Shown one piece after another: positions 1 through 12,974 of a stretch of 14,900 nt of DNA. The notes beneath the pieces are model-generated. The model was not told the origin of the DNA. It was given only the letters and a program-made list of their open reading frames with translations, and ran no database searches. The stretch lies in the UHGV virus genome UHGV-0189183, one strand, 5' to 3'. The stretch is from a virus. A program made the position numbers and the translations under genes. The first letter of the stretch is position 1. Every line of letters begins with the position of its first letter.

Positions 1-270
1 TATGCGGTTAATTTGCCGACATCTTCTGGAATTGGCTTTGATCGTTCTGATTTAGCTGTTATTGCCGCGATGAATCATATTGGGGTGGCGATGGGAAGAA
101 AACGCCTGGTACAAAAAAGGCTTGCCAGTGGTGAGCTCGTCGCGCCGTTTGGCGATATGACGGTGAAATGCCATCAGCATTATTACATCACCACATTACC
201 GGGCAGGCAGTGGCCAAAAATTGAAGCGTTTATTACCTGGCTAAGAGAACAGGTAAAAACCACTTCATAA
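1..270 (+). CDS. dsdC: LysR-family transcriptional regulator, C-terminal fragment (5' end lies beyond the window start)
   Basis: Reading frame is open from base 1 and stops at 270. The tail resembles a LysR effector-domain C-terminus. The symbol is from synteny only: in E. coli K-12 dsdC lies on the far side of the prophage occupying argW, with yfdC and mlaA on the other side. Confidence 0.5.
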   Translation, partial: YAVNLPTSSGIGFDRSDLAVIAAMNHIGVAMGRKRLVQKRLASGELVAPFGDMTVKCHQHYYITTLPGRQWPKIEAFITWLREQVKTTS

Positions 271-365: not shown

Positions 366-387
366 TGGTGTCCCTGCAGGAATCGAA
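366..387. repeat. Distal attachment-site core: displaced copy of the tRNA-Arg 3' end (TGGTGTCCCTGCAGGAATCGAA)
   Basis: Near-identical to 11892-11914 (one C fewer in the C-run). Its reverse complement ends GGGACACCA, i.e. an acceptor-stem 3' side plus CCA. Confidence 0.8.
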
Positions 388-438
388 AATGTATTTATAT
401 CTATGTTTTATAAAGGTAATTTAAGTGGTTGTTTTGTT

Positions 439-460
439 GATACCATCATGGATACCATCA
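439..460 (+). repeat. Two tandem GATACCATCA copies (putative integrase arm-type sites, left end)
   Basis: GATACCATCA at 439-448 and 451-460. The same motif recurs next to the integrase gene at 11729-11779. Confidence 0.5.
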
Positions 461-912
461 AACGATAAAAACATCTCATTAAGGCCATAGAGATCGGCCT
501 ATTCCGTCAGTTTCAATAATGAATAGTTGGATGAAAAAACGACGGGGCAGGGGGCTGGCAAATCTGCGAAAAGGTTGAAAAATGCGCAAAAAAGTTATCA
601 CACCCCACGCATTATACAATGCTGCTCGCAAACCAGCGCCAACTCTGGGAAGTCAGGGGGATACACCCTAAAGTATTTTTTTCATTTTATGTATACCAGA
701 ATGGCTTTAAATCACTCACCATCCAGCGCTATAACCGGGTTTAACCGTGTATACCATCCCCCATGTGATATGACGTATTCTCATTCATAAAACCCTTTAT
801 TGTATCGAATTTGACACAATACCCGCCCGCAGTAATCAGACCGTCAAGCAAATATCGTTGTACTGTTCACGACACACCTGATCACTCAAGAATTGTTCAC
901 AGCGAGAAAAAT

Positions 913-1938
913 ATGGATAACCCGGACAAAACTCCCGTACCTGAGGTCACTGTAGCAACAGAACCGCAGCCCTCTGCAGAATGCTTCACCTTTGGCGATC
1001 CCATTCCGGTACTGGACCGGCGCGAGCTGCTTGATTATGTGGAGTGCGTACAGATTGATCGCTGGTATGAACCGCCGGTCAGTTTTGCCGGGCTGGCACG
1101 TACCTACCGCGCTGCCGTGCATCACAGTTCACCAATTGCTGTTAAGCGTGACATTCTCAGCAGCACCTTCATCCCACACCGCTTGCTCAGCCAGCAGTCT
1201 TTCGCCCGTTTCGTTCAGGATTATCTGGTGTTTGGTAATGCTTATCTGGAAAAGCGCACCAACTGGCTGGGTGGTGTCCTCTCACTGGAGCCAGCGCTGG
1301 CAAAGTATACCCGGCGCGGCGTTGACCTAGAATCCTACTGGTTTGTGAACTACGGCCTGACGATGCAGCCTTATGAGTTCACCAGAGGCAACATTTTTCA
1401 TCTGATGGAGCCGGATATTAACCAAGAGATTTACGGGCTGCCCGGTTATCTCTCCGCCATTCCGTCAACCCTGCTCAACGAGTCCGCAACGCTGTTCCGT
1501 CGGAAATATTACATCAACGGCAGCCATGTAGGCTTCATCATGTACATGACCGACGCTGCGCAGAATCAGGAGGATGTGAACAACATCCGCAAGGCAATGA
1601 AAAGTGCCAAAGGACCGGGCAATTTTCGCAATCTCTTTATGTACTCACCCAATGGCAAAAAAGATGGCATCCAGATCATCCCCCTATCCGAAGTTGCGGC
1701 GAAAGATGAGTTTCTGAACATCAAGAACGTGAGCCGTGATGACATGATGGCAGCGCACCGCGTGCCACCGCAGATGATGGGAATCATGCCGAGTAACGTT
1801 GGGGGGTTTGGAGATGTAGAAAAAGCCAGCCGTGTTTTTGTTCGCAACGAACTGATGCCGCTACAGAAGCGACTGCAGGAACTGAACGACTGGTGTGGCG
1901 AGAAAATAATTAGTTTTGAACCTTATACACTTGAGTAA
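913..1938 (+). CDS. Cargo protein resembling a P2-family (gpQ / PBSX-type) portal protein; an in-frame TTG at 811 is an alternative start
   Basis: Long ORF of normal GC content. Conserved-looking blocks (FGDPIPVLDRRELLDY, WYEPPVSF, LVFGNAYLEK, NESATLFRRKYY) match what I recall of P2-type portal proteins. Size about 341 aa from the ATG at 913. Family assignment is from memory and not verified. Confidence 0.45.
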   Translation: MDNPDKTPVPEVTVATEPQPSAECFTFGDPIPVLDRRELLDYVECVQIDRWYEPPVSFAGLARTYRAAVHHSSPIAVKRDILSSTFIPHRLLSQQSFARFVQDYLVFGNAYLEKRTNWLGGVLSLEPALAKYTRRGVDLESYWFVNYGLTMQPYEFTRGNIFHLMEPDINQEIYGLPGYLSAIPSTLLNESATLFRRKYYINGSHVGFIMYMTDAAQNQEDVNNIRKAMKSAKGPGNFRNLFMYSPNGKKDGIQIIPLSEVAAKDEFLNIKNVSRDDMMAAHRVPPQMMGIMPSNVGGFGDVEKASRVFVRNELMPLQKRLQELNDWCGEKIISFEPYTLE

Positions 1939-1966
1939 TAAAAAAGCCACTGAAGTGGCTTTTTTA
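1939..1966. terminator. Bidirectional rho-independent terminator shared by the convergent portal-like and DUF4062 genes
   Basis: A-run, stem GCCAC (1946-1950), loop TGAA, stem GTGGC (1955-1959), T-run 1960-1965. Confidence 0.6.
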
Positions 1967-1967
1967 T

Positions 1968-2933
1968 TTAATCGGGAAGGTTACGTAAATCGATATATGA
2001 GAAAAATGCGGCACCTTTCTCAGTTAACTCGTATCGAAGATATCGATTTTCCATTATTGGCGTTGTTTTGAGTAGGCCATGGACCATCATTAACGTGCAA
2101 ACATTTCTAACCAAAAAACCAGCTAAGTCAGTCGAATTTGATCTTAACCCAGAAAGAATAGTTCCTCTATACAGCAAAATGAGTCGCATTGCTGTTGTTT
2201 TAACTGGCTCTGGAGTTTCGGATAATTTTGTCGGGATCGTTAACTGTGTATTTTCAAATAGCTTATATATTTTACTGAACTCTTCCTCAGATGGTTTTTT
2301 TACTATAGCTTTACTTTCAGGGGAACGTGCAGCTCTGAGAAGTTCAACCTCAGATTTTAAAGCTTCATTTTCCTTCGTTAGTTTAGATATTTGTTCTATT
2401 AACACACTTGACTCTGATATTTCCTTTCCAGAAACCCACCCAAGGAGATTTCTCTCGACACCAATTTGAGGAAGTGTCTTATAAATTGATATTTGTATAT
2501 CTTTAATATCCCGAAAAAATTCCACCGGATACCCCTTGACCTTTTGTTTGAAAGCTTCATATTTTGTCGGGTTATCTAATTCAAGAACTTCCTTACCAAC
2601 TGTTTTAACTTTTTCATCTAGATATTCGTCATCAATGACTATCGAAAATAGAGGTTTGTTTGTACTTAAAGCATAATCATATTCGAGCTCTGTATAGCAA
2701 TAATCACTGCCGGGAGCAATCGTTCCATAACGCCCTCCCAGAATAAGGATGTAGATATCTGACTCATCTATCCAGCGCTTAATAATTTCTAACTGGCTTC
2801 TGTCTCCAGGCTTAAATAGCTCCATTCCCGCAGGTATATGCCCGGCAGTTAATATGGCACTTACCGCAGCTTGCCTTTCTTCAATGAGGTCTGTAAAAGT
2901 TGATGAAATGAAAACTTGAAATTTCCTATTCAT
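1968..2933 (-). CDS. DUF4062-type N-terminal domain protein with coiled-coil and uncharacterised C-terminal domain (hotspot cargo)
   Basis: 321-aa ORF. N-terminus MNRKFQVFISSTFTDLIEERQAAV carries the FISSTFxDLxxER signature I associate with Pfam DUF4062. Gene is markedly AT-rich relative to the element backbone. Confidence 0.65.
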   Translation of the reverse strand: MNRKFQVFISSTFTDLIEERQAAVSAILTAGHIPAGMELFKPGDRSQLEIIKRWIDESDIYILILGGRYGTIAPGSDYCYTELEYDYALSTNKPLFSIVIDDEYLDEKVKTVGKEVLELDNPTKYEAFKQKVKGYPVEFFRDIKDIQISIYKTLPQIGVERNLLGWVSGKEISESSVLIEQISKLTKENEALKSEVELLRAARSPESKAIVKKPSEEEFSKIYKLFENTQLTIPTKLSETPEPVKTTAMRLILLYRGTILSGLRSNSTDLAGFLVRNVCTLMMVHGLLKTTPIMENRYLRYELTEKGAAFFSYIDLRNLPD

Positions 2934-3331
2934 TTTTTATCCATATAGAGTTATTGTCATCTAACATACCTACAAAATGCTATAGGTAAATTTAAGTTGG
3001 TATTATTAGTCTTTTACTAGTATCTAATGCTGAAAAAGTTGATGAAAGAAAGACATTAGACGCAGATACCAACATCAGAGCATAATCATATGATATAGGT
3101 TAAAGCGTGTTCAAGACCGATTAACGTAAGTTCCCTAGATCTCCCCTCAGCGCGAGCAGCCCCGCCCGCCTGCCCGCTTCGCTTAACAGAATGGTTTTCA
3201 TGCACCCCGTAAATCGCCTCAGGAGCCGCCACACAAGGGCTTTCACGTCAAAAATGATGCATGAGACTCATGCGTTTTCATGCGCCATAGACATGCACTC
3301 ATGCGCTCTCAGGCCAGCCAGGAAAAAGGCG

Positions 3332-3360
3332 TAAAAAATCCCGGTGCCGGGCCGGGATTA
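3332..3360 (-). terminator. Rho-independent terminator ending the Sid/Psu-Ogr operon
   Basis: On the minus strand: stem AATCCCGG, loop, stem CCGGGATT, followed directly by a T-run; about 20 nt past the Ogr-like stop. Confidence 0.55.
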
Positions 3361-3379
3361 GGTAGGCGTTTTTTGCTAA

Positions 3380-3652
3380 TCAGACAGGGATTTGCTGGCG
3401 GCTTGATAACTTTGATGCAGAGCCATAGCGATTGAGCGTTTGCTGTTGTTTTTCCGGCATTTGTGCTTTGTCTGATTCCTGTTCATTGCGCCGGGGCTTC
3501 ATAATTATCTTATCCACACTTTCCAGAGCGGTAAATGTGCAGGAACATTCAAGATTCTGGCACTGATACCATGAGCGTTTAACCGACGGTGCTTCATAGG
3601 CGGTGGTTCTGGCGTGTGCAACGGTGCCGCATTCAGGACATTTCAGCGCCAT
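3380..3652 (-). CDS. Ogr/Delta-family zinc-finger late-gene transcriptional activator
   Basis: 90 aa. C-x2-C-x22-C-x4-C arrangement (CPECGTVAHART...YQCQNLEC) closely matches the P2 Ogr / P4 Delta pattern. Confidence 0.85.
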   Translation of the reverse strand: MALKCPECGTVAHARTTAYEAPSVKRSWYQCQNLECSCTFTALESVDKIIMKPRRNEQESDKAQMPEKQQQTLNRYGSASKLSSRQQIPV

Positions 3653-4413
3653 CAGATACCCTCCATATCACGGTTACGTTTCTGCAGCTCTTCACGTTCC
3701 TGACGGATCTTCATTTTGTGAAGGGCCGCCGGTGACGGGATTTTGCTTAAATCGACACGAGCCGCATAATCCGGCGCAACGCCCGCCAGTTTAAACACAG
3801 GGTCCAGTTCCGGCATCGCAGTGTTAGCAAGAGCCGGTTTGGTGATATGTTTGTGAATAAAGTCTTTCAGCAGTGTGTCCGGGTCATTAACTGAATTCAC
3901 CACCCCCACAACGGCACTGGCTTCCCGCCCCATTGTGGTTTTGAGCAGGCTCAGTGTCTGGATTAACGCCTTACCATGCGCCTGCATGAAGTCTTCCCAG
4001 ATTTGCTTTGCGCGAATTTCCACAAGGGTGTTATGTGCGCTGATATACTGCCCGGCTAATTTCCCGGCTTCCTGCGGTAATAAGGCATTTTCGCTTTCCT
4101 GAGCTGCCAGCAGTTCATCAAAATCCTCAAGCGTTTCTCGTCCCAGCGCAATTTCCGTGCGCAGTTTTTTCATTTCCTTTGAGACTACGCCCTGACTTTC
4201 ACGAAACAGCGTGCGCCACTCCTCATTCAGCGCGTTCGTCGTGGCTTCCATTTCAGCCCGGCGCTGGCGGATTGTCGCAATATTATCCGCTGCCGCTTTC
4301 TGCCGACGACGTGCTTCAAGCCATGCGCTTCTGGCCGTGTTCAGGGTTTCCATTGCCTGCTGCGTTACAGCCGGAAAAGTGGAAAGGTTGTTATTCTCTG
4401 CGGTGTTGTTCAT
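3652..4413 (-). CDS. Sid/Psu-family protein (P4 capsid-size determination / polarity suppression family)
   Basis: 253 aa, strong AGGAG ribosome-binding site before the ATG at 4413. Immediately upstream of the Ogr/Delta-like gene, as sid is in P4. Helical, charge-rich sequence resembling my recollection of P4 Psu/Sid. Which paralogue it is cannot be resolved. Confidence 0.6.
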   Translation of the reverse strand: MNNTAENNNLSTFPAVTQQAMETLNTARSAWLEARRRQKAAADNIATIRQRRAEMEATTNALNEEWRTLFRESQGVVSKEMKKLRTEIALGRETLEDFDELLAAQESENALLPQEAGKLAGQYISAHNTLVEIRAKQIWEDFMQAHGKALIQTLSLLKTTMGREASAVVGVVNSVNDPDTLLKDFIHKHITKPALANTAMPELDPVFKLAGVAPDYAARVDLSKIPSPAALHKMKIRQEREELQKRNRDMEGI

Positions 4414-4447
4414 GACTTCTCCTGCCGGGTTGGTTCGTTACGTCAAT

Positions 4448-4465
4448 TGTGTCGTGACTGACACA
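4448..4465. promoter_or_regulatory. Dyad TGTGTC-N6-GACACA (TGT-N12-ACA type) upstream of the Sid/Psu-like gene
   Basis: Perfect 6-bp inverted arms. The TGT-N12-ACA layout is that of Ogr/Delta activator sites in P2/P4 late promoters. Confidence 0.4.
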
Positions 4466-4588
4466 AGCGCACTATCGGCGCTCAGTGTGTGGTGGCTGGC
4501 ACAACGGGCGTTTGCGGTTATTCAGACGCGGCCATGACAGCCAGCCAGATAAAAATGCCTCTGTTTCAGCCTGCTTTATGTCCCGGAT

Positions 4589-4787
4589 GCGGTGAAACAG
4601 GTGGAACAGGTGTTACAGCATTGTTTTGTAAAACATTTATATGCACATCACAGGTGAAACATCGCAGGTAACAAGGTGGAACAGCGGATCGGCTGGCGTT
4701 CCACCTGTTCCACCTCACTATTTCAGAAGGTGAAACAGGTTTAGCCCTTGTAAAATACGGGTGTTCCACCTGTTTCACCTGTTACCC
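4589..4787. repeat. Iteron cluster (putative origin / alpha-protein binding sites, P4 ori/crr-like)
   Basis: At least seven copies of GGTG(A/G)AACAG in both orientations, e.g. 4591-4612, 4651-4660, 4675-4684, 4699-4716, 4729-4740, 4763-4782. Reverse complement TGTT(C/T)CACC resembles the P4 octamer TGTTCACC. Confidence 0.65.
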
Positions 4788-4813
4788 TTAATAAATAAGA
4801 CTCACGCAAAGCC

Positions 4814-7486
4814 TTAACCCGGCACCTCGCTGTTGAAGACATAGAGTCTGCGGGGATTCATCTCTGGCGGGCGAATGGTTGTCTGCAGCTTGCCATCGGT
4901 GGAGGGCAGCAGGTATCCACGATCCGCGCACAGACGCGCCACCTTGCGCGGGTCAAATCCCCGGCAGATTTCTTTCCAGCCGGACGGCATGACGTAGAAC
5001 GTGGTGACGGCCTCCGTGCCCTGCGCGGTACTGCCTTTCTCCACCCTGCGCCAGCCCACCATATTGCCGGGGCGGTTACGCTCGTCGTGCCAGTCAGCAA
5101 AGCGGCTGTACTGATTCGCGGTAAAGAAGCTGCGTACCTGCTCCAGTGCGGCAATATCTTCCTGATTGGCGGTGTGCCCGCGATCTTTCAGCCATGCGTT
5201 CAGGCAGACGCGGGTTGCCCGCAGCGCTTCACCCTCAGGCCAGCCGGTAATACCCAGCCGGGTTGCCAGCTCGCCCGCCATCGCCACCAGTGCAAAGCGG
5301 TTCACAGCCCGGCCTACCTGATTACCCGCATCTTTCGGGGTCAGGGCGGCTGTATATTCCTTCATCAGTGACTTTGCCTGTGCCGTCAGCCCGTTAAGGT
5401 CAGCGGTCAGGGCTTTCAGCCACTCCCTGAACGGCGAACCGTAGTAGCTGGACGTGGCCCACTCCAGATGTTCCGCCAGAGCCTTGCCGCTGTCGAAGCC
5501 GTGCAGCTCCTCAAATACGCCAAATTTCCCGGAATCGCTGGGGATCTGGATCATCCTGACTTCCATCCCGGCAAAGGTACGCTCACCGGCTTTTGCCGCA
5601 TGTTCGGTCAGTGACAGCTCGCCGGTTGAAAAGAACAGCAGCCGCCACTGCTTACGGGTGCGCAGCTCACCGTCCGTACCGGCACGGCCCTTGCCCTGAC
5701 CGTTTGCCAGCATGTAGGCGATATTACCCGCCTCGCGTCCGTCCACCTCCCGGATCTCATCAAGCATCATGGCGGCATCGTTGCGGCGGCTGGCGCATCC
5801 CTCCAGCGCGTTGCCGGTTGCCCGCCACGTCTGCCAGTAATCAGGCCCGCCACAAACGGAGGTTGCCGCTTTCATGGTGGTGGTCTTACCGTCAGTCGAT
5901 TCCCCCTTGAGGTGGTAGCCGCCGCCGTCCATCCCAACCAGCCGTAACAGGGGTGCAGCAAAGGCCAGACTGACGGCAAACGCCACGCGGGAGTTACCGG
6001 TGCAGTAACGGGAAACGTGCTCCCGCCATTCCTCCGTTGTACCTGACACACGGAAATCGCGCCCCTGCACGGAAGTGGTCTGGAGAATGACACCCTCTGC
6101 ACCTTCACCGCTGACCTCATCCTGCAGGACGTAAACCTGACCATGCCAGCCAGTGCGGCTGACGCAGGTCACGCGGCGTTCCGGTTTACACAGCGAGATA
6201 TATTCCATCAGGCGGGCGCGGGCCTCACCGGTGGTGCTGATATAGGACAGCCCGTTAACCAGCAGTACCCGGCGTAGTTCCTCACCGCTACCACTGAGCA
6301 TTTCCATCGGCATCGCCCAGCGGCGGCGCTCTCCCCATGTATCTTCCCACTCCAGCAGTCGCCCGAAATTACCGCCATCAGCATCGCAGGTGATTGCCGT
6401 CACGCGCAACGGGTTGCATATTTTGACGTTCTGGATCTCCGTCTCACCGTTGCGCTGTACCTGTTTTTCATACCAGAGATATTCCTGGGTAAGACGGAAC
6501 CCGTGCGGCAACTGCGTGCGGCCTTCTCCGCACAGTACAAGACCGTTACGAAAGGCTTCACGGGCACGTGTAATACCGTGCTCACGGTGGAAGTCATTCC
6601 AGTCAGCTTTAATTTCTCCCGGTGGCAGCGTCACCCAGCCACCGACTGATTTTGCCGCCCGTTCAGCAAAGGATCTGCCGGGATTCTCGCCCCCGTCCTG
6701 AAAATCGTTATCACCGGCGATGATAATTTTTACCTCAGGCCAGCGTGCCCGCAGCGCCTGTGCGACGTTGGGCAGGTTGCCCGCCGATATGGCCGCCACT
6801 ACGCATCCGGCGGTGAGCTGGCTTACCGTCAACGCCGTGGCGTAACCTTCGGTAATCACCACCTGTACCGGCGGTTCAGACGGTAACGGGCTGAGCGCCA
6901 CAAACGCGCCTTTCATCGTGCTGCCGGGCAGTATGCTTTTTTCACCCGTCGGGGCGATAAGCTGTGCACCGGTCACGGCTCCGGCGTTTGTCGTGAGCGG
7001 TAACAGCAGGGAACCGGCAGGGAAATCCTTACCACTGATATGCTGCACGCTCCCGGTCAGGGAGGCCGGGTATCCGGCGAACCCTTTTCCGGTCAGATAG
7101 GGGCTTTCTCCCGTGTGACTCTCTTTCATCAGGGCCGCCACGGTAAGGCTCATATCGCGTTTAGGGGCTTTTTGCCTGGCGGGCTTAACGGGCAGTTCCT
7201 GCACATCCGGCACATTAAGCACCTGCGCCACCTCCTGCGCTGCCTTTCTGATGCCGTAACCGGTTATGAGCTTAACCAGATCCAGACCATCACCATTGCC
7301 GCACTGGCTGCAAATCCACGTCCCGCGCCCGTCGAGGTCATCGAGGCGGAAGCGATCCTTGCCCCCACATTTCGGGCAGGGACCGTGCCTGCCGTTTTCA
7401 GGTACATCAATACGCAGCATCTGCAGAATGACGGGCCATTTTCCCCGCGCTGCGGCTGAAATCTGCGTAACCGTCTGTGTTGTCAT
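4814..7486 (-). CDS. P4 alpha-type primase/helicase replication protein
   Basis: 890-aa ORF. N-terminal zinc-binding motif CPKCGG...CSQCG. Large size and position in the replication operon next to the iterons match P4-family alpha proteins. Confidence 0.85.
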   Translation of the reverse strand: MTTQTVTQISAAARGKWPVILQMLRIDVPENGRHGPCPKCGGKDRFRLDDLDGRGTWICSQCGNGDGLDLVKLITGYGIRKAAQEVAQVLNVPDVQELPVKPARQKAPKRDMSLTVAALMKESHTGESPYLTGKGFAGYPASLTGSVQHISGKDFPAGSLLLPLTTNAGAVTGAQLIAPTGEKSILPGSTMKGAFVALSPLPSEPPVQVVITEGYATALTVSQLTAGCVVAAISAGNLPNVAQALRARWPEVKIIIAGDNDFQDGGENPGRSFAERAAKSVGGWVTLPPGEIKADWNDFHREHGITRAREAFRNGLVLCGEGRTQLPHGFRLTQEYLWYEKQVQRNGETEIQNVKICNPLRVTAITCDADGGNFGRLLEWEDTWGERRRWAMPMEMLSGSGEELRRVLLVNGLSYISTTGEARARLMEYISLCKPERRVTCVSRTGWHGQVYVLQDEVSGEGAEGVILQTTSVQGRDFRVSGTTEEWREHVSRYCTGNSRVAFAVSLAFAAPLLRLVGMDGGGYHLKGESTDGKTTTMKAATSVCGGPDYWQTWRATGNALEGCASRRNDAAMMLDEIREVDGREAGNIAYMLANGQGKGRAGTDGELRTRKQWRLLFFSTGELSLTEHAAKAGERTFAGMEVRMIQIPSDSGKFGVFEELHGFDSGKALAEHLEWATSSYYGSPFREWLKALTADLNGLTAQAKSLMKEYTAALTPKDAGNQVGRAVNRFALVAMAGELATRLGITGWPEGEALRATRVCLNAWLKDRGHTANQEDIAALEQVRSFFTANQYSRFADWHDERNRPGNMVGWRRVEKGSTAQGTEAVTTFYVMPSGWKEICRGFDPRKVARLCADRGYLLPSTDGKLQTTIRPPEMNPRRLYVFNSEVPG

Positions 7487-7866
7487 ATTTCCCCCTGATA
7501 CAGCGATACACCCGAGCTGCAGAAGTCATCAAATGCCGCCGGAAGTGTGCGGTACAGCTCCGCCATCACTTCACAGCCGCGCACAGTCAGTACCGGTGGC
7601 GCGGTCAGCAATGATGGCTCCAGCATGTCAGTCAGCAGCGCCAGTGCAGCCGCTGCTCCCTGTGCTTCGCCATATTCGTTAATCAGTGCGCACTCGATAT
7701 GCAGGGCAATGGCCATTTCAATACGTTCAACCGTCAGGCTGTGCGGACCATAGTGATCGCAGCCGGTTTCGGTCAGCGCTTTCTGGCGCCAGGCCGATGC
7801 AATAGCCCGCCGGTAAAGCGCAGTGGTCATTTCTGCCGGAAAAATAGAAACCTGCGGCTGGTTCAT
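7483..7866 (-). CDS. Hypothetical protein, replication-operon member
   Basis: 127-aa ORF. Stop overlaps the alpha start and its start overlaps the upstream gene stop (translational coupling). Confidence 0.5.
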   Translation of the reverse strand: MNQPQVSIFPAEMTTALYRRAIASAWRQKALTETGCDHYGPHSLTVERIEMAIALHIECALINEYGEAQGAAAALALLTDMLEPSLLTAPPVLTVRGCEVMAELYRTLPAAFDDFCSSGVSLYQGEI

Positions 7867-8147
7867 TGGGTGCCTCCTTCAATCAGTTCGCAACTGTGCG
7901 CAATATCCGTCAAATCTGCCCGCAGGTACTCCATCAGCGCGGCGATGCCTGGCGCACATCCTGCATCCAGCGTTCCGCCCTGCGAGGGGTATTCAGAAAA
8001 GAGAAGCTGCAACATGTCGCAGGCCTTTCTGGCGCGGTCCAGCTTTCCGAAACCGTCCTCTGACAACCCATACGCAAAAGCACCGCTATTGTGTTTTTCA
8101 GGCAAAGCGTGGCCCTGAGCACCGTTGTGCCCGTTTGAAATATTCAT
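7863..8147 (-). CDS. Hypothetical protein, replication-operon member
   Basis: 94-aa ORF, co-oriented and overlapping the next gene by 4 nt. Confidence 0.45.
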   Translation of the reverse strand: MNISNGHNGAQGHALPEKHNSGAFAYGLSEDGFGKLDRARKACDMLQLLFSEYPSQGGTLDAGCAPGIAALMEYLRADLTDIAHSCELIEGGTQ

Positions 8148-8178
8148 CGTGGATTACTCCGTTTTCAGCGGTGTTTTG

Positions 8179-8538
8179 TCAGAGAAACTTTGAATAGTGA
8201 CTGTCGTCAGGTTCAGCAGAACGCCGTATGCTGCGCTCCCGCCAGCGGGTAAATACCACCGACGGATGCAGCGTCAGCGAGCCAGAGCCGCTACCCCCCG
8301 CGGGAGCTAGCGAAGGTTTAAAGAGCGGGGCATTAAACAGGCGCGTATACCGCTGCTCAAACCATGCCAGAGGGCAGGAAGAAAGCTTATTGTCGCTGTC
8401 ATGACGAATCAGCACTTCACAGCTGAATTCAGGGTTAACCAGCGCCACGGAGGGCGAGGCTTCAGTTAATCTGATAATCGTGACAGTCCAGCCACGCTCA
8501 TGCTGCCAGCGTTCGCCGGGTTGCGGATAATTACGCAT
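8179..8538 (-). CDS. Hypothetical protein (start moved to the ATG at 8538)
   Basis: GGAGGTGA ribosome-binding site 5 nt before the ATG at 8538. Overlaps the upstream gene stop by 8 nt. Confidence 0.5.
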   Translation of the reverse strand: MRNYPQPGERWQHERGWTVTIIRLTEASPSVALVNPEFSCEVLIRHDSDNKLSSCPLAWFEQRYTRLFNAPLFKPSLAPAGGSGSGSLTLHPSVVFTRWRERSIRRSAEPDDSHYSKFL

Positions 8539-8707
8539 GTTCACCTCCACAGGGAATGCGACCGGCAAAGCTCAGCACATAGTCCGGGGCAAGTCTGCGC
8601 CGCGCTGAGCGCTCGTTATCTGCGGTGATCCTTAACATCACAGGACGGGCATTGCGTTGACTGCGGTTGATCGCCGCAAATAACCAGGTACACTTCTGTT
8701 TAGCCAT
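8531..8707 (-). CDS. Small P4-family protein, first gene of the leftward operon (possibly Icd-like; uncertain)
   Basis: GAGGT ribosome-binding site before the ATG at 8707 (MAKQKCTWLFAAINRSQ...). About 58 aa. The longer ORF-track start at 8761 has no ribosome-binding site. Confidence 0.4.
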   Translation of the reverse strand: MAKQKCTWLFAAINRSQRNARPVMLRITADNERSARRRLAPDYVLSFAGRIPCGGEHA

Positions 8708-8790
8708 TTTCGTTACCTCATCTAACGCTTTGGTCAGACGCCTCGGCAGTGCCGCAAACACTCCGGGGCGTTGCTATTTTGATTCCTTGT

Positions 8791-8836
8791 GTGTAATGTG
8801 TCATTACACATAAGCACATTACAATAGGTGTAATTG
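8791..8836. promoter_or_regulatory. Operator-like array of TGTAATG/CATTACA half-sites in the divergent promoter region
   Basis: GTGTAATG (8791-8798) and CATTACAC (8802-8809) form an inverted repeat; CATTACA (8817-8823) and TGTAAT (8829-8834) form a second. The array overlaps the AGGTG ribosome-binding site of the RHH gene. Confidence 0.5.
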
Positions 8837-8838
8837 AC

Positions 8839-9018
8839 GTGTCAACACACAAGAACGAAAGACGTGGTAATCCACCATTCCAGTTCAGACTTGACCCTGA
8901 ATTGCGTGAGTTAATGGAAGAAGCACAGCAGCAGGATGGTGATGAATCACTGGCTGCTTGGATCAAACGCATTATCCGCAAAGAGCTACAAAGTCGTGGT
9001 TCCGAACCAAAGAACTGA
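8839..9018 (+). CDS. Ribbon-helix-helix (Arc/MetJ-type) small DNA-binding protein, GTG start; not in the supplied ORF track
   Basis: 59-codon ORF, GTG at 8839 preceded by AGGTG at 8826-8830, stop TGA at 9016-9018. The N-terminal segment PPFQFRLDPELRELMEEAQQQ is typical of an RHH beta-strand and first helix. Confidence 0.5.
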   Translation: MSTHKNERRGNPPFQFRLDPELRELMEEAQQQDGDESLAAWIKRIIRKELQSRGSEPKN

Positions 9019-9026
9019 TAAATACA

Positions 9027-9056
9027 TGGGGAAGATTTTCTTCTTTCCCATTTTTC
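9027..9056 (+). terminator. Weak terminator-like hairpin plus T-run after the RHH gene
   Basis: GGGAAGA / TCTTTCCC imperfect stem with one bulge, followed by TTTTT at 9051-9055. Confidence 0.3.
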
Positions 9057-9069
9057 TAAGGTCGTCATA

Positions 9070-9279
9070 TTATTTATCAGCATCTGAGGATTGAGCTTTT
9101 ACCCACTGTCTAATTTCTTGTGCATCGTAAACAGTTACCCGTTTTGAAATACGTGTGGATTTTGGAAATTCAGGATTGTTTTTTTCCCAGCGCCAGAGAG
9201 TAACTGTGCTTACTTGCAAAAAGTCAGCAGTAGCCCGTGGGCGGGCATGCCCGGTGATAGGGTAAGTTTTTAATGTCAT
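9070..9279 (-). CDS. alpA: AlpA-family transcriptional regulator / excisionase-like protein
   Basis: 69 aa. The segment FLQVSTVTLWRWEKNNPEFPKSTRISKRVTVYDAQEIRQWV matches the AlpA (MerR-like helix-turn-helix) family pattern. Confidence 0.75.
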   Translation of the reverse strand: MTLKTYPITGHARPRATADFLQVSTVTLWRWEKNNPEFPKSTRISKRVTVYDAQEIRQWVKAQSSDADK

Positions 9280-9287
9280 GAAATTAC

Positions 9288-9315
9288 CTGCCGTGTTATG
9301 TAATGAACACGGCAG
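9288..9315. promoter_or_regulatory. Perfect 10-bp inverted repeat CTGCCGTGTT-N8-AACACGGCAG directly upstream of alpA
   Basis: The loop contains TGTAATG. On the minus strand the 3' arm includes the probable alpA ribosome-binding site (AGGT). No flanking T-run, so more likely an operator or translational-control hairpin than a terminator. Confidence 0.45.
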
Positions 9316-9386
9316 ATGATGGCAAGGTTAGGGCTAAATTATCAGTGCCACTATTTTGTTTTTATGATGGTATAAAATATTACCAC

Positions 9387-10439
9387 TTAAAATCTTCCTG
9401 CTTTAGATGAGCTAAGACATTCTTTTATCTTATCTTTTCCAAGTTCAACCTTTGTTTTTGGATTGTTTCTTTCTGCCACGATTTTATCTGCCCACGCGTC
9501 AATAGTCAGTTTTCCTCGTTTTCCATTGCAAGATGCTGGGTCATTTAGTAACCAATAAATAGCTGCTTTGTACACTGCCTCTCTTTTTGTTGCTGATGCT
9601 TCAACATTACCATGCACTCTTCGGATGCTTTCGATGCTGGATACACCACCATTCACATAGCTGGGTAGCTCTTTGCCAACACCGTTATCTAATTTTTCTA
9701 TTTGGTATCTTGTTAAATAGATATCATCCAGTGTTATATTTCCAATAATATTTTTATTAGATGGAGATACTAATCCCTCTATTGATGATAAGCCTTCGAA
9801 AGGGGACATTGCTAATATTACCCACTCATCACTGCCAAATGCAGCATTAGTGAATGGCATATTAGCTTCTTTAAAAGAAATATCATGTGCTAATAGCCTT
9901 GCTTTACCATATACCTTTAGTTCTTTGTATAATGAAGATGTTGGGCTGATGACACATATAGACCACAATCCAGAAAGTAAGATTAATGGGCTTTTTATAT
10001 TTGGTTTGTTTTCTAAATGGTATATTTGTTTTGGAGGTGAAAATGGCTTATCTTCTGTATAATCAATATCGAATTTTGCTTTTGGTATGAAATGGCTTAA
10101 TGCAGATTTATTACTATAGTTTAATACTCTGGGTGGGTACATGTTTTCCCAATCTTTAAAATCTCCACCTTTACGCATCATCATTAGCGCAGCTTCGAAA
10201 CCATTTAATTCTAAGCAAAATTCGATAATTCCAATTTGAGCAAAATGGATAAGGTCATCAATTTGGCAATTAAGTAGTTCAGCAGCTCGTTTTAGGGAGC
10301 AAAATTCCATTACAGGAATACTATTCCTTTCCCAAACATTTAATCGTGTATTATCGCTCATCACGTCACCTGTATGCACATATGGTAAAATGGGGCGAAT
10401 AGCAGACTTTACTACTATTAGCCATTTTCTTATTTTCAA
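9387..10439 (-). CDS. Hypothetical AT-rich cargo protein between integrase and alpA (alternative start at 10361 with AGGTGA ribosome-binding site)
   Basis: 350-aa ORF whose first codon overlaps the integrase stop. Conspicuously AT-rich. No family recognised by eye. Confidence 0.6.
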   Translation of the reverse strand: MKIRKWLIVVKSAIRPILPYVHTGDVMSDNTRLNVWERNSIPVMEFCSLKRAAELLNCQIDDLIHFAQIGIIEFCLELNGFEAALMMMRKGGDFKDWENMYPPRVLNYSNKSALSHFIPKAKFDIDYTEDKPFSPPKQIYHLENKPNIKSPLILLSGLWSICVISPTSSLYKELKVYGKARLLAHDISFKEANMPFTNAAFGSDEWVILAMSPFEGLSSIEGLVSPSNKNIIGNITLDDIYLTRYQIEKLDNGVGKELPSYVNGGVSSIESIRRVHGNVEASATKREAVYKAAIYWLLNDPASCNGKRGKLTIDAWADKIVAERNNPKTKVELGKDKIKECLSSSKAGRF

Positions 10440-11707
10440 ACAACGCGTAGTTTTTTCATTTTATAGGGGGCAATATATCTATCAGTGTTAGCTTCAATAT
10501 AATTAGACCACCATTGCATCATCCGACGACGTTCATGCATATGCTGAGCTAAGTGTACATAAGCGGCTCGCACTTCATTTCGTTCTTGATGGCTCATTTG
10601 CCGTTCTACTGCATCCCTCGACCATAAGCCTGATTCTGTCAGGGCTGAGCACGCCATTGCCCTAAATCCATGAAGGCAAATGTCCACCTGCGTGTCGTAC
10701 CCCATAATTCTTAATGACTTATTAACTGTGTTCTCACTCATTGGTTTGTAAGGGTTACTATCTCCGGGGAAAATAAGTTCATACTCACCACTTATTTTTT
10801 TAATAGCTTCGAGAACATCAATAGCTTCATTAGATAATGGAACATAATGAATACTGCCCATTTTTGCCCCACGCTCTGAATATTTTACCCCATCAATTCT
10901 TTTTCTTTGAGCAGGAATAGTCCACATTGCATTTTCAAAATTAATTTCCTCCCATCTTGCGTGTCTCAGTTCACTGGAGCGAACAAAAGTATGAAGAGAA
11001 AATAATACTGCCAGCTTAGTTAACGGCCTCCCTGTATAGCTATCAATTTTTGATATTAATTCGGGTAATCGTTCTAACGGAAGTGCAGGGCGATGCTTTA
11101 TTTTGGGGCTGGAAATTGCTCCTCTTAGATCATGGGTAGGATTGTATTCAACAATTCCACGCTGAATAGCGTACCGGAAAACGCTTGCAAGAGTAGTTTT
11201 CACTCTTCCTGTTGTTGCTCCAATTCCCTGATCACTCATCCTCACCAATAATGGCAACAGGTCACTTGTTTTTAATGAGTCGATGGGTTTATTTCCGATA
11301 TATGGGAAAATATGATTTTCCATTTCTCTTAAAATTTTAGTGCGGGTAATCTCTTTCCATGAGGGATGGCCTATAGAGCCTTTATGCCACTCTAAAGCGA
11401 TTGTCTGGAATGTAGCAGAGGCGGGTTCTGTTGGCGCTGCTTTTTTAGATACTCTGGGATCAACACCGTCGGCTAAAAGTTGCCTTGCTTCATCTCTACG
11501 CTTACGGGCAAGTGCCAGCGAAACGTCTGGGAAAACGCCCAAAGCCAGCGTAGCTTGTTTGCCGTTAAATCTGTAGTTCATTCGCCATGCCTTGGTCCCG
11601 TTCTTTTTAACTAAAAGATACAGGCTTCCCCCATCCGTCAGTTTGTAGTCTGTTTCTTTGGGTTTAGCGTTTTCAACTTTCTTGGGTGATAGCTCATTTA
11701 GTGCCAT
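10436..11707 (-). CDS. int: P4-type tyrosine integrase (site-specific recombinase)
   Basis: 423 aa. N-terminal arm-binding-type region (YKLTDGGSLYLLVKKNGTKAWRMNYRFNGK) and C-terminal catalytic region (HGFRAMACS...VERQMSH...RAAYVH with the tyrosine). Immediately adjacent to the tRNA gene. Confidence 0.95.
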   Translation of the reverse strand: MALNELSPKKVENAKPKETDYKLTDGGSLYLLVKKNGTKAWRMNYRFNGKQATLALGVFPDVSLALARKRRDEARQLLADGVDPRVSKKAAPTEPASATFQTIALEWHKGSIGHPSWKEITRTKILREMENHIFPYIGNKPIDSLKTSDLLPLLVRMSDQGIGATTGRVKTTLASVFRYAIQRGIVEYNPTHDLRGAISSPKIKHRPALPLERLPELISKIDSYTGRPLTKLAVLFSLHTFVRSSELRHARWEEINFENAMWTIPAQRKRIDGVKYSERGAKMGSIHYVPLSNEAIDVLEAIKKISGEYELIFPGDSNPYKPMSENTVNKSLRIMGYDTQVDICLHGFRAMACSALTESGLWSRDAVERQMSHQERNEVRAAYVHLAQHMHERRRMMQWWSNYIEANTDRYIAPYKMKKLRVV

Positions 11708-11728
11708 GGAGAGTAATCTTTGTTGTCA

Positions 11729-11779
11729 GTTGATGGTATCGGTTTATCGAACCGTGAGTACCATCAACGATACCATCAG
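11729..11779. repeat. Putative integrase arm-type sites between int and the tRNA
   Basis: TGATGGTATC (11731-11740, inverted), TACCATCAAC (11759-11768) and GATACCATCAG (11769-11779); same motif as 439-460. Confidence 0.5.
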
Positions 11780-11891
11780 AATCATGTAATGTCATGAAAT
11801 CAACTGAAACCATGTTCAAGGCGACAGGCCCTGATTTTGCTGGTTTTAAGGGGGGAGGTGAAGTGTGTTGAAACGTGATGAAATGAAAAGG

Positions 11892-11966
11892 TATTGTCCC
11901 CTGCAGGAATCGAACCTGCAATTAGCCCTTAGGAGGGGCTCGTTATATCCATTTAACTAAGAGGAC
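11892..11966 (-). tRNA. argW: tRNA-Arg, anticodon CCU (argW-type); the three nucleotides after the discriminator read ATA, not CCA
   Basis: The reverse complement, read from 11966 (5' end) to 11892 (3' end), gives GTCCTCTTAGTTAAATGGATATAACGAGCCCCTCCTAAGGGCTAATTGCAGGTTCGATTCCTGCAGGGGAC-A-ATA. It folds as a cloverleaf with a CCU anticodon and a TTCGATT T-loop. Confidence 0.85.
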
Positions 11967-11977
11967 AATGCGGCATG

Positions 11978-11983
11978 AGTATA
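11978..11983 (-). promoter_or_regulatory. Probable -10 hexamer (TATACT) of the tRNA promoter with GC-rich discriminator
   Basis: On the minus strand GGGTATACTCATGCCGCATT immediately precedes the tRNA 5' end. Confidence 0.4.
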
Positions 11984-12041
11984 CCCGCTAATGGAGTGCG
12001 GGGTAAGTACGCTGCCGCTCGATTGCTTAAACCCTCGCCAT

Positions 12042-12974
12042 TTATGCCGGGTTTTTATAATTTTTCTTAATGTTTTCCGCACGTTCTGCTTTTTGGCGTG
12101 CTTCTGCTTTACGCTTATTGCTCATGTCGTTACGAATCTGTGCATGACTCATTAACGCGAAGATAAAGGTGCCGCCGCAGATGTTCCCCGCTAAAGTAGG
12201 TAGTGCGAAGGGCCAGATGAAATCGCTCCAGTGCAGCGTACCGTTAAACACCAGATAGAGGATTTCAACAGAACCGACCACGATATGGGTGGTGTCACCC
12301 AGGGCAATAAGCCAGGTCATCAATATAATCACCACAATCTTTGCCGCACCCGCTGCAGGAAACATCCAAACCATAGTGGCGATCAGCCAGCCGGAAATGA
12401 TCGCGTTGGCAAACATCTCGCTGGGGGTGTTCTTCATCACATCCATGCCGATTTTGACAAATGCATCGCGAGTTTCTTCATTGAAGATAGGCATATATTC
12501 AAATGCCCACGCCGCAATACCTGTCCCGAGAATATTACCCAGCAGCACGACGCCCCATAACCGTATAAGTAAGCCGACGTTGCTCATTGTCGGTTTTTGC
12601 ATGACGGGTAGTACCGCAGTCACGGTATTTTCGGTAAATAATTGCTGGCGGGCCATAATGACGATAATAAAACCAAAGGTATAACCGAGATTCTCCAGCA
12701 AGAAGCTGCCCGGCACACCTTCCAGTTCGACTTGAAATATCCCTTTTGCCAGTAACGAAGCGCCCATCGACAGACCCGCCGCAATGGCTGACCACAGTAG
12801 CGCCATTGCGTCGCGTTCCAGCTCTTTTTCACCATCCTGGCGGATATGCTCATGAATTGCCATCGCCCGGGAGGGGAGTCGGTCTTCATCTATTTCTATT
12901 TTTTTGCCGCGCTCTTTTTCTTCGCTCTCAACTTCAATTTCGTCGCTGTGTTGATCAATTTTGTCGTTGTCCAT
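12042..12974 (-). CDS. yfdC: Formate/nitrite transporter (FNT) family inner-membrane protein, YfdC-like
   Basis: 310 aa. Acidic N-terminal tail followed by multiple hydrophobic transmembrane segments. Sits between tRNA-Arg and mlaA as in E. coli. Confidence 0.75.
   Translation of the reverse strand: MDNDKIDQHSDEIEVESEEKERGKKIEIDEDRLPSRAMAIHEHIRQDGEKELERDAMALLWSAIAAGLSMGASLLAKGIFQVELEGVPGSFLLENLGYTFGFIIVIMARQQLFTENTVTAVLPVMQKPTMSNVGLLIRLWGVVLLGNILGTGIAAWAFEYMPIFNEETRDAFVKIGMDVMKNTPSEMFANAIISGWLIATMVWMFPAAGAAKIVVIILMTWLIALGDTTHIVVGSVEILYLVFNGTLHWSDFIWPFALPTLAGNICGGTFIFALMSHAQIRNDMSNKRKAEARQKAERAENIKKNYKNPA

Follow-up and report, generated by a model that had tools for sequence, protein, structure and literature searches.

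The window, as we call the whole 14,900-nucleotide stretch of DNA analysed here, holds the E. coli tRNA gene argW, the chromosomal sequences that surround it, and an integrated element of about 11.5 kb that separates the body of the gene from its original 3' end. The features around argW and at the two ends of the element are as follows:

1..270, plus strand: 3' end of dsdC, chromosomal flank lying next to argW wherever the site is empty
366..387, minus strand: attR, the displaced argW 3' end TTCGATTCCTGCAGGGACACCA, with the identity block at 369-387 (containing GGG) and the chromosomal CCA at 366-368
388..11891, minus strand: body of the element, about 11.5 kb and P4-like according to the RefSeq annotation of near-identical loci and to Pfam and PHROGs matches
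11892..11894, minus strand: ATA in place of the templated CCA, the first satellite bases on the tRNA strand; an empty site (L002) has CCA here
11895..11914, minus strand: attL identity block TTCGATTCCTGCAGGGGACA, covering the T arm's 3' half, the 3' strand of the acceptor stem and the discriminator (direct-repeat search, junction tables)
11895..11966, minus strand: argW, the tRNA-Arg(CCU) gene, positions 1-73 through discriminator A (ARAGORN, Rfam, identity to K-12, fold)
12042..12974, minus strand: yfdC, a conserved chromosomal neighbour upstream of argW (RefSeq annotation)

Read on the tRNA strand from 11966 to 11895, argW extends from GTCCTCTTAG to TTCGATTCCTGCAGGGGAC-A. The 72 nt of the minus strand, GTCCTCTTAGTTAAATGGATATAACGAGCCCCTCCTAAGGGCTAATTGCAGGTTCGATTCCTGCAGGGGACA, are followed by ATA and then by CCTTTTCATTTC..., the bases directly after ATA being CC. 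The earlier sequence-only reading, according to which the acceptor end GGGGAC and the discriminator A are succeeded by ATA, and the displaced copy at 366-387 retains CCA with one G fewer, agrees with this direct reading on both counts. The body of the gene is intact by every measure applied. The Rfam tRNA model RF00005 matches 11966..11895 over its full length (1-71) and scores 63.4 bits, the gathering score being 29; ARAGORN reports a tRNA-Arg(cct) at 11894-11967; and in the ViennaRNA fold the 72 nt form a cloverleaf whose acceptor stem has 7 bp and whose discriminator A is free, with an unstructured trailer behind it. K-12 is 100% identical to the window across 11895-12250, the body of argW included. 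Among the canonical features of an E. coli tRNA gene the cloverleaf, the 7-bp acceptor stem and the discriminator are thus present at argW, and the DNA-encoded 3' CCA is absent. The loss is also reflected in the PGAP annotation, which gives tRNA-Arg a length of 72 nt in satellite-bearing genomes versus 75 nt at empty or prophage-occupied sites.

The window as a whole is 99.9% identical to E. coli UTME-8. The element carries these genes:

811..2933, no strand assigned: variable cargo slot between attR and ogr/delta (Pfam, PHROGs)
811-1938, plus strand: P2-type portal-protein homologue in the cargo slot (phrog_68, E 7e-169)
1968-2933, minus strand: DUF4062 protein in the cargo slot (Pfam)
3380..3652, minus strand: Ogr/Delta zinc-finger transcriptional activator (Pfam Ogr_Delta)
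3652..4413, minus strand: Psu/Sid-like protein, called capsid morphogenesis protein in RefSeq (Pfam Psu; phrog_6165)
4814..7486, minus strand: alpha-like primase/helicase (Zn_Ribbon_Prim, Toprim_3, DUF927; phrog_1139, E 8e-185)
9070..9279, minus strand: AlpA-family regulator that may act in excision or transcription (Pfam Phage_AlpA)
10436..11707, minus strand: tyrosine integrase of 423 aa (Pfam Arm-DNA-bind_3, Phage_int_M, Phage_integrase; phrog_1)

Judging from its genes alone (integrase, primase, Psu/Sid and Delta/Ogr) the element belongs to the P4-like satellites. It shares with P4, whose int lies at leuX, and with the P4-like satellites of Enterobacterales (PMC8628076) the same modules, namely an arm-type tyrosine integrase next to a tRNA gene, AlpA, an Icd-like protein, primase, Psu/Sid, Delta/Ogr and a cargo slot, and it resembles them further in its size of about 11.5 kb and in the direct repeat of a tRNA 3' part that flanks it. 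Unlike P4, the element targets argW rather than leuX, its attachment-site identity stops at the discriminator, and the gene that it rebuilds has no CCA. The cargo slot holds unrelated genes in sister satellites, where a YecA/SEC-C protein, an ATP-binding protein or pairs of hypothetical proteins are found instead; a PADLOC scan of the window's own cargo genes, the portal homologue and the DUF4062 protein, gave no match. A portal gene is an odd possession for a satellite that hijacks capsids, and its product could serve as a decoy or interference factor. Between alpA and int lies an ORF of 350 aa (9387-10439; 975 nt in the RefSeq version) that has no match in Pfam, PHROGs or PADLOC and whose position is kept in sister satellites by an 882-nt hypothetical gene.

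The integration of mobile elements into the 3' ends of tRNA genes is textbook knowledge, and the ends of this element conform to it. A direct-repeat block of 19/20 nt, corresponding to the 3' segment of the tRNA, occurs at 369-387 and 11895-11914, and the intact copy of argW lies at the integrase-side end. The attR copy occupies 22 nt of the minus strand (387..366, TTCGATTCCTGCAGGGACACCA) and continues into TCCTTGTG..., which is the native dsdC-side flank. In other E. coli the empty sites read GGGGACACCA and pass directly into the flank found at 1-365 of the window. The empty site examined most closely, L002, reads ...CTGCAGGGGACACCATCCTTGTG... (in a longer reading ...TTCGATTCCTGCAGGGGACACCATCCTTGTGTTTATCCC), with argW joined directly to the flank at 1-368 of the window, and the same arrangement recurs in many E. 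coli genomes. The empty site thereby equals the left side of attL plus the right side of attR, in L002 as in many other genomes, and conversely attL combines chromosome on the left with satellite on the right, and attR satellite on the left with chromosome on the right. The yfdC-argW side is present in all 5426 complete genomes searched, and among the matches listed K-12 and other E. coli cease to resemble the window precisely at base 11895. Since the empty sites run from GGGGACACCA straight into the flank at 1-365, the homology of the element to argW ends at the discriminator: the shared identity amounts to TTCGATTCCTGCAGGG(G)ACA and nothing beyond. Because of this, integration rebuilds positions 1-73 of the tRNA and swaps the CCA and the native trailer for satellite DNA, so that the complete gene with its templated CCA is not regenerated and ATA (in the window element) or CTT (in sister elements) stands in its place.

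The comparison with the empty argW site, a check that the sequence-only reading had proposed, thus found CCA in place and the window flank directly joined to it, and it bears out the claim that the integrated element supplies the bases after the tRNA body and that the chromosomal CCA and trailer now lie at the far end. It shows that the two copies of the argW 3' end are the ends of an integrase-bearing element and no chance repeat, and that satellite integration is the cause of the CCA loss. The attP site is a reconstructed sequence, its free form being absent from the viral, phage, plasmid and metagenome searches: an exact-pattern scan of viral contigs found none, BLAST with the reconstructed 787 nt had no match in phage records (distant mode) or plasmid records (near mode), and a metagenome scan returned integrated copies only.

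Among 5426 complete E. coli genomes, seven have the 60-nt junction with ATA base for base; so do two metagenome contigs, in one of which the tRNA body is not that of E. coli. The six genomes with an M10-type prophage are left out of this count of seven, as that prophage keeps CCA. The genomes come from sewage in Pakistan, a pig in the USA, a mink in China and other sources, and from different laboratories. That the ATA triplet might be a sequencing or assembly artefact is a general possibility with practically nothing to recommend it, given that independent assemblies from different laboratories and hosts share the junction, which rules out a sequencing error, and that the whole trailer, well beyond three bases, differs from the chromosomal one. 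Elements of a sister satellite family show the junction GGGGACA/CTTTAAAG (a slash marks the point of transition), again without CCA but with CTT, in up to 72 of the 5426 genomes. Together the ATA and CTT types put the CCA-less argW in about 1.5% of complete E. coli genomes, a figure to be read as a lower-bound style estimate. In each of the seven ATA-type genomes the argW 3' end has a single match, so these strains possess no tRNA-Arg(CCU) gene besides the CCA-less one and no back-up copy of it.

The CCA-less state extends well beyond E. coli. When a single genome from each GTDB species was scanned for GGTTCGATTCCTGCAGGGGACA with any base and then a non-C behind it, a pattern that takes CCA-less loci only, 90 loci in as many species representatives (L010-L099) had the same tRNA 3' end and no CCA; the 90 is a bare count, not a proportion. 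They belong to Enterobacter, Leclercia, Citrobacter, Klebsiella, Pantoea, Pseudomonas and other genera. One identical 5' tRNA body is shared by 55 loci of Enterobacteriaceae (Enterobacter, Leclercia, Citrobacter, Klebsiella, Kluyvera and others), another by 18 loci of Pseudomonas, and a few loci are from Gram-positives, in which CCA-less tRNA genes are normal. The triplet after the discriminator is mostly CTT (37), CAT (12) or TAT (11), and ARAGORN called tRNA-Arg(cct) in all 12 loci tested. The state of argW is less of an exception than the sequence-only reading suggested: the CCA-less gene is real, but it has company in the sister satellites of up to 72 further E. coli genomes and in 90 other species.

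A tblastn search with four integrases covered the 64 loci whose downstream sequence extends to 2 kb or more; it detected a P4-type, IntS-type or M10-type match in five of them and none in the other 59, and the idea that all CCA-less genes of other species are fresh integrations was rejected on this ground. In four Enterobacter or Lelliottia genomes the distance from the tRNA to the start of the conserved neighbour lpxP is just 550-614 nt, too short to accommodate an island. Directly behind ACACTT, a stretch of 100-200 nt cannot be aligned between species and is hypervariable even among congeneric Enterobacter; the lpxP promoter region beyond this stretch is conserved. Whether the CCA-less states outside E. 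coli are native or the scars of old integrations, the persistence of such a gene in many species, its body perfectly conserved, points to a tRNA-Arg(CCU) gene that is tolerated without CCA and probably functional. The junction of the CTT satellites, ACACTTT, is closer to the flanks of foreign species than to that of E. coli, which suggests that their attachment site may have evolved on hosts whose gene already lacked CCA. A comparable boundary has been described for two Klebsiella islands, in which the direct repeat ends before CCA as it does here (bioRxiv 10.1101/2020.11.02.365908); the excerpted text of that paper uses the CCA point for integrase recognition, and the consequence for the tRNA gene is not discussed in it. 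No paper describing the loss of CCA at argW, or what follows from it, came up in our literature search.

What lies downstream of argW depends on the element that adjoins it. The IntS prophages of the KplE1, CPS-53 and HK620 type (PMC3509656) occupy the same gene as the satellite, in the same orientation and with the integrase downstream of the tRNA. Unlike the satellite, they regenerate CCA (junction GGGGACACCAT/TTATCAG), and the window integrase, 77% identical to that of the sister satellites, is just 38% identical to IntS. Two strains illustrate the interplay. In 4FM (L107) argW with ATA is followed by the satellite and then by a csc/DUF4942 flank. EC1515 has the satellite, the flanks and the yfdC allele of 4FM, but a P22/HK620-like IntS prophage sits between argW and the satellite (tandem regions L003 17480-17640 and L108 32960-33095); here argW reads GGGGACACCATTTATCAG, with CCA present and an annotated length of 75 nt, and the satellite junction has become ...AGATGT/CTGCAGGGGACA/ATACC. 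A metagenome contig (L100) has the reverse order, the satellite adjoining the tRNA and the IntS prophage lying distal, and CCA is absent, so tandem occupancy of argW is seen in both orders. The simplest history of EC1515 would be that an IntS phage integrated into a CCA-less argW and restored its CCA, and such phages accordingly appear able to use the CCA-less gene as an attachment site. The loss of CCA can thus be undone, and argW stays usable as a target. The junctions show that the 3' end of argW is set by its neighbouring element and that the CCA-less state is reversible; either excision of the satellite or an IntS-type prophage next to the tRNA would put CCA back.

The two copies of the attachment core differ in their G-run, a difference that had been taken to mark the crossover or the decay of the displaced copy. 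The difference is real, yet it makes a poor crossover marker, as attR is polymorphic. The run is GGGG at attL in 14 of 14 loci and either GGG or GGGG at attR among sister elements, and it differs between near-identical sisters (GGG in L005 versus GGGG in L102; L006 versus L103; L104 versus L007 and L105), which indicates that it is labile, or mis-called in some assemblies, in a remnant that is free of selection. Its variation could be due to slippage, attP polymorphism or assembly error, and the step from three to four Gs is weak evidence for the point of exchange. There is roughly an even chance that attP itself has GGG, in which case strand exchange must have occurred 3' of the run, within GGGACA, leaving GGGG in the tRNA and GGG in the displaced copy. 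Window-type elements indeed have GGG at attR and GGGG at attL throughout, in three flank contexts (dsdC, csc/DUF4942 and IntS prophage), and exchange in the 16-nt left register would leave the tRNA with GGG, a form seen nowhere. The sister pairs just listed speak against this, and some of the flank contexts could reflect later prophage insertion rather than independent satellite integrations. We give slightly less credence to an attP with GGGG whose displaced copy lost a G later, by slippage in the unselected remnant or as a homopolymer error. The polymorphism of attR between near-identical elements fits this course of events, as does the adjacent T-run, nine versus eight nucleotides long in L006 and L103; but GGG is found in all seven window-type assemblies sampled or matched and in a metagenome contig, and this reading calls for a large number of independent deletions within a run of only 4 nt.

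How a tRNA might be made from the CCA-less gene can be judged against established E. coli tRNA biology. E. coli matures the CCA-less tRNAs of phage T4 with the help of RNase BN and the CCA-adding enzyme. The parallel with argW is close, a gene without CCA in a host that has both trimming and CCA-adding enzymes; unlike the T4 genes, argW is a host chromosomal gene converted by a mobile element, and its maturation is deduced here by analogy. All tRNA genes of E. coli K-12 encode CCA, and loss or disruption of cca causes only a mild (repair) defect (PMC6468291); RNase Z/BN removes non-CCA and aberrant 3' ends (PMC7479834). The best explanation overall, and one that we hold to be very probable, is that satellite integration makes argW CCA-less and that the transcript is trimmed and receives its CCA from the enzyme. 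The satellite has recombined site-specifically, by means of its tyrosine recombinase, into the 3' end of argW through the shared TTCGATTCCTGCAGGG(G)ACA, a block that takes in the T-arm 3' half, the 3' strand of the acceptor stem and the discriminator. The tRNA is thereby rebuilt exactly from 1 to 73, with satellite DNA (ATACCTTTTC...) in place of the templated CCA and native trailer, and the original ...ACACCA with the dsdC flank is displaced by 11.5 kb. The argW transcript would then run into an unstructured, A/U-rich trailer towards the integrase gene, be trimmed to discriminator A73 by RNase BN/Z and/or 3' exonucleases, and acquire CCA from the host enzyme in the manner of the T4 tRNAs. Sequence comparison shows how the site is built, where each base comes from and that the state can be reversed; 3' trimming followed by CCA addition is the likely maturation route by its fit to known E. 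coli biology.

The same biology admits a less favourable outcome. tRNA-Arg(UCU) also reads AGG, so argW is in principle dispensable and the persistence of a CCA-less copy is no proof of function. It is conceivable, though we think it unlikely, that argW is effectively dead in satellite strains, its precursor being poorly cut by RNase P or tagged and degraded and AGG being read only by tRNA-Arg(UCU), the argU product. E. coli RNase P uses the 3'-CCA of the precursor for efficient 5' cleavage (Wegscheid and Hartmann 2006, as cited in PMC5143459), so a CCA-less precursor may mature poorly; argW is a minor, rare-codon tRNA, and the CCA-less state is confined to the small fraction of E. coli genomes given above. 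Yet the tRNA body is intact in every copy, and the attL run is invariably GGGG whereas that of the non-functional attR drifts between GGG and GGGG. The 55 Enterobacteriaceae species representatives moreover keep an identical CCA-less body, and E. coli, which matures the CCA-less phage tRNAs, possesses the necessary enzymes. Maturation by trimming and CCA addition accordingly remains our preferred reading.

The gap between argW and the integrase gene deserves a comment of its own. The two genes are co-oriented, int lying on the argW strand 187 nt downstream of the tRNA gene (gap 11708-11894), and the gap contains a weak sigma-70-like site on the minus strand (11795..11767). Scanning for terminators downstream of argW gave no site before int in the window, and none at the empty site either. 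With this arrangement, transcription from the tRNA promoter could read through into int.

The observation is mechanistically unsurprising and its phenotypic effect probably small, because tRNA-Arg(UCU) reads AGG and the CCA-less state is common in related genera. Still, it qualifies the rule that every E. coli tRNA gene encodes CCA, which is true for K-12 and fails at argW in about 1.5% of complete genomes, and annotation pipelines record the loss silently, as a tRNA of 72 instead of 75 nt. It also follows that elements targeting tRNA genes do not always restore the target gene fully. A bolder generalisation, to which we assign a low probability, is that tRNA-Arg(CCU) is a recurrent natural exception to the templating of CCA in gammaproteobacteria: elements ending at the discriminator would overwrite the 3' flank and leave a scar that outlasts them, in E. 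coli the adjoining element would switch CCA off and on, and the satellite might exploit the state. If this were true, the satellite might make AGG decoding depend on cca and RNase BN, or it might free the integrase transcript when an argW-int co-transcript is processed at the tRNA 3' end. In satellite strains the CCA-adding enzyme, otherwise dispensable, should be needed for the dedicated tRNA to decode AGG, and these strains offer a natural and genetically tractable test of how the cell handles a chromosomal CCA-less precursor by means of RNase P, RNase BN and cca.
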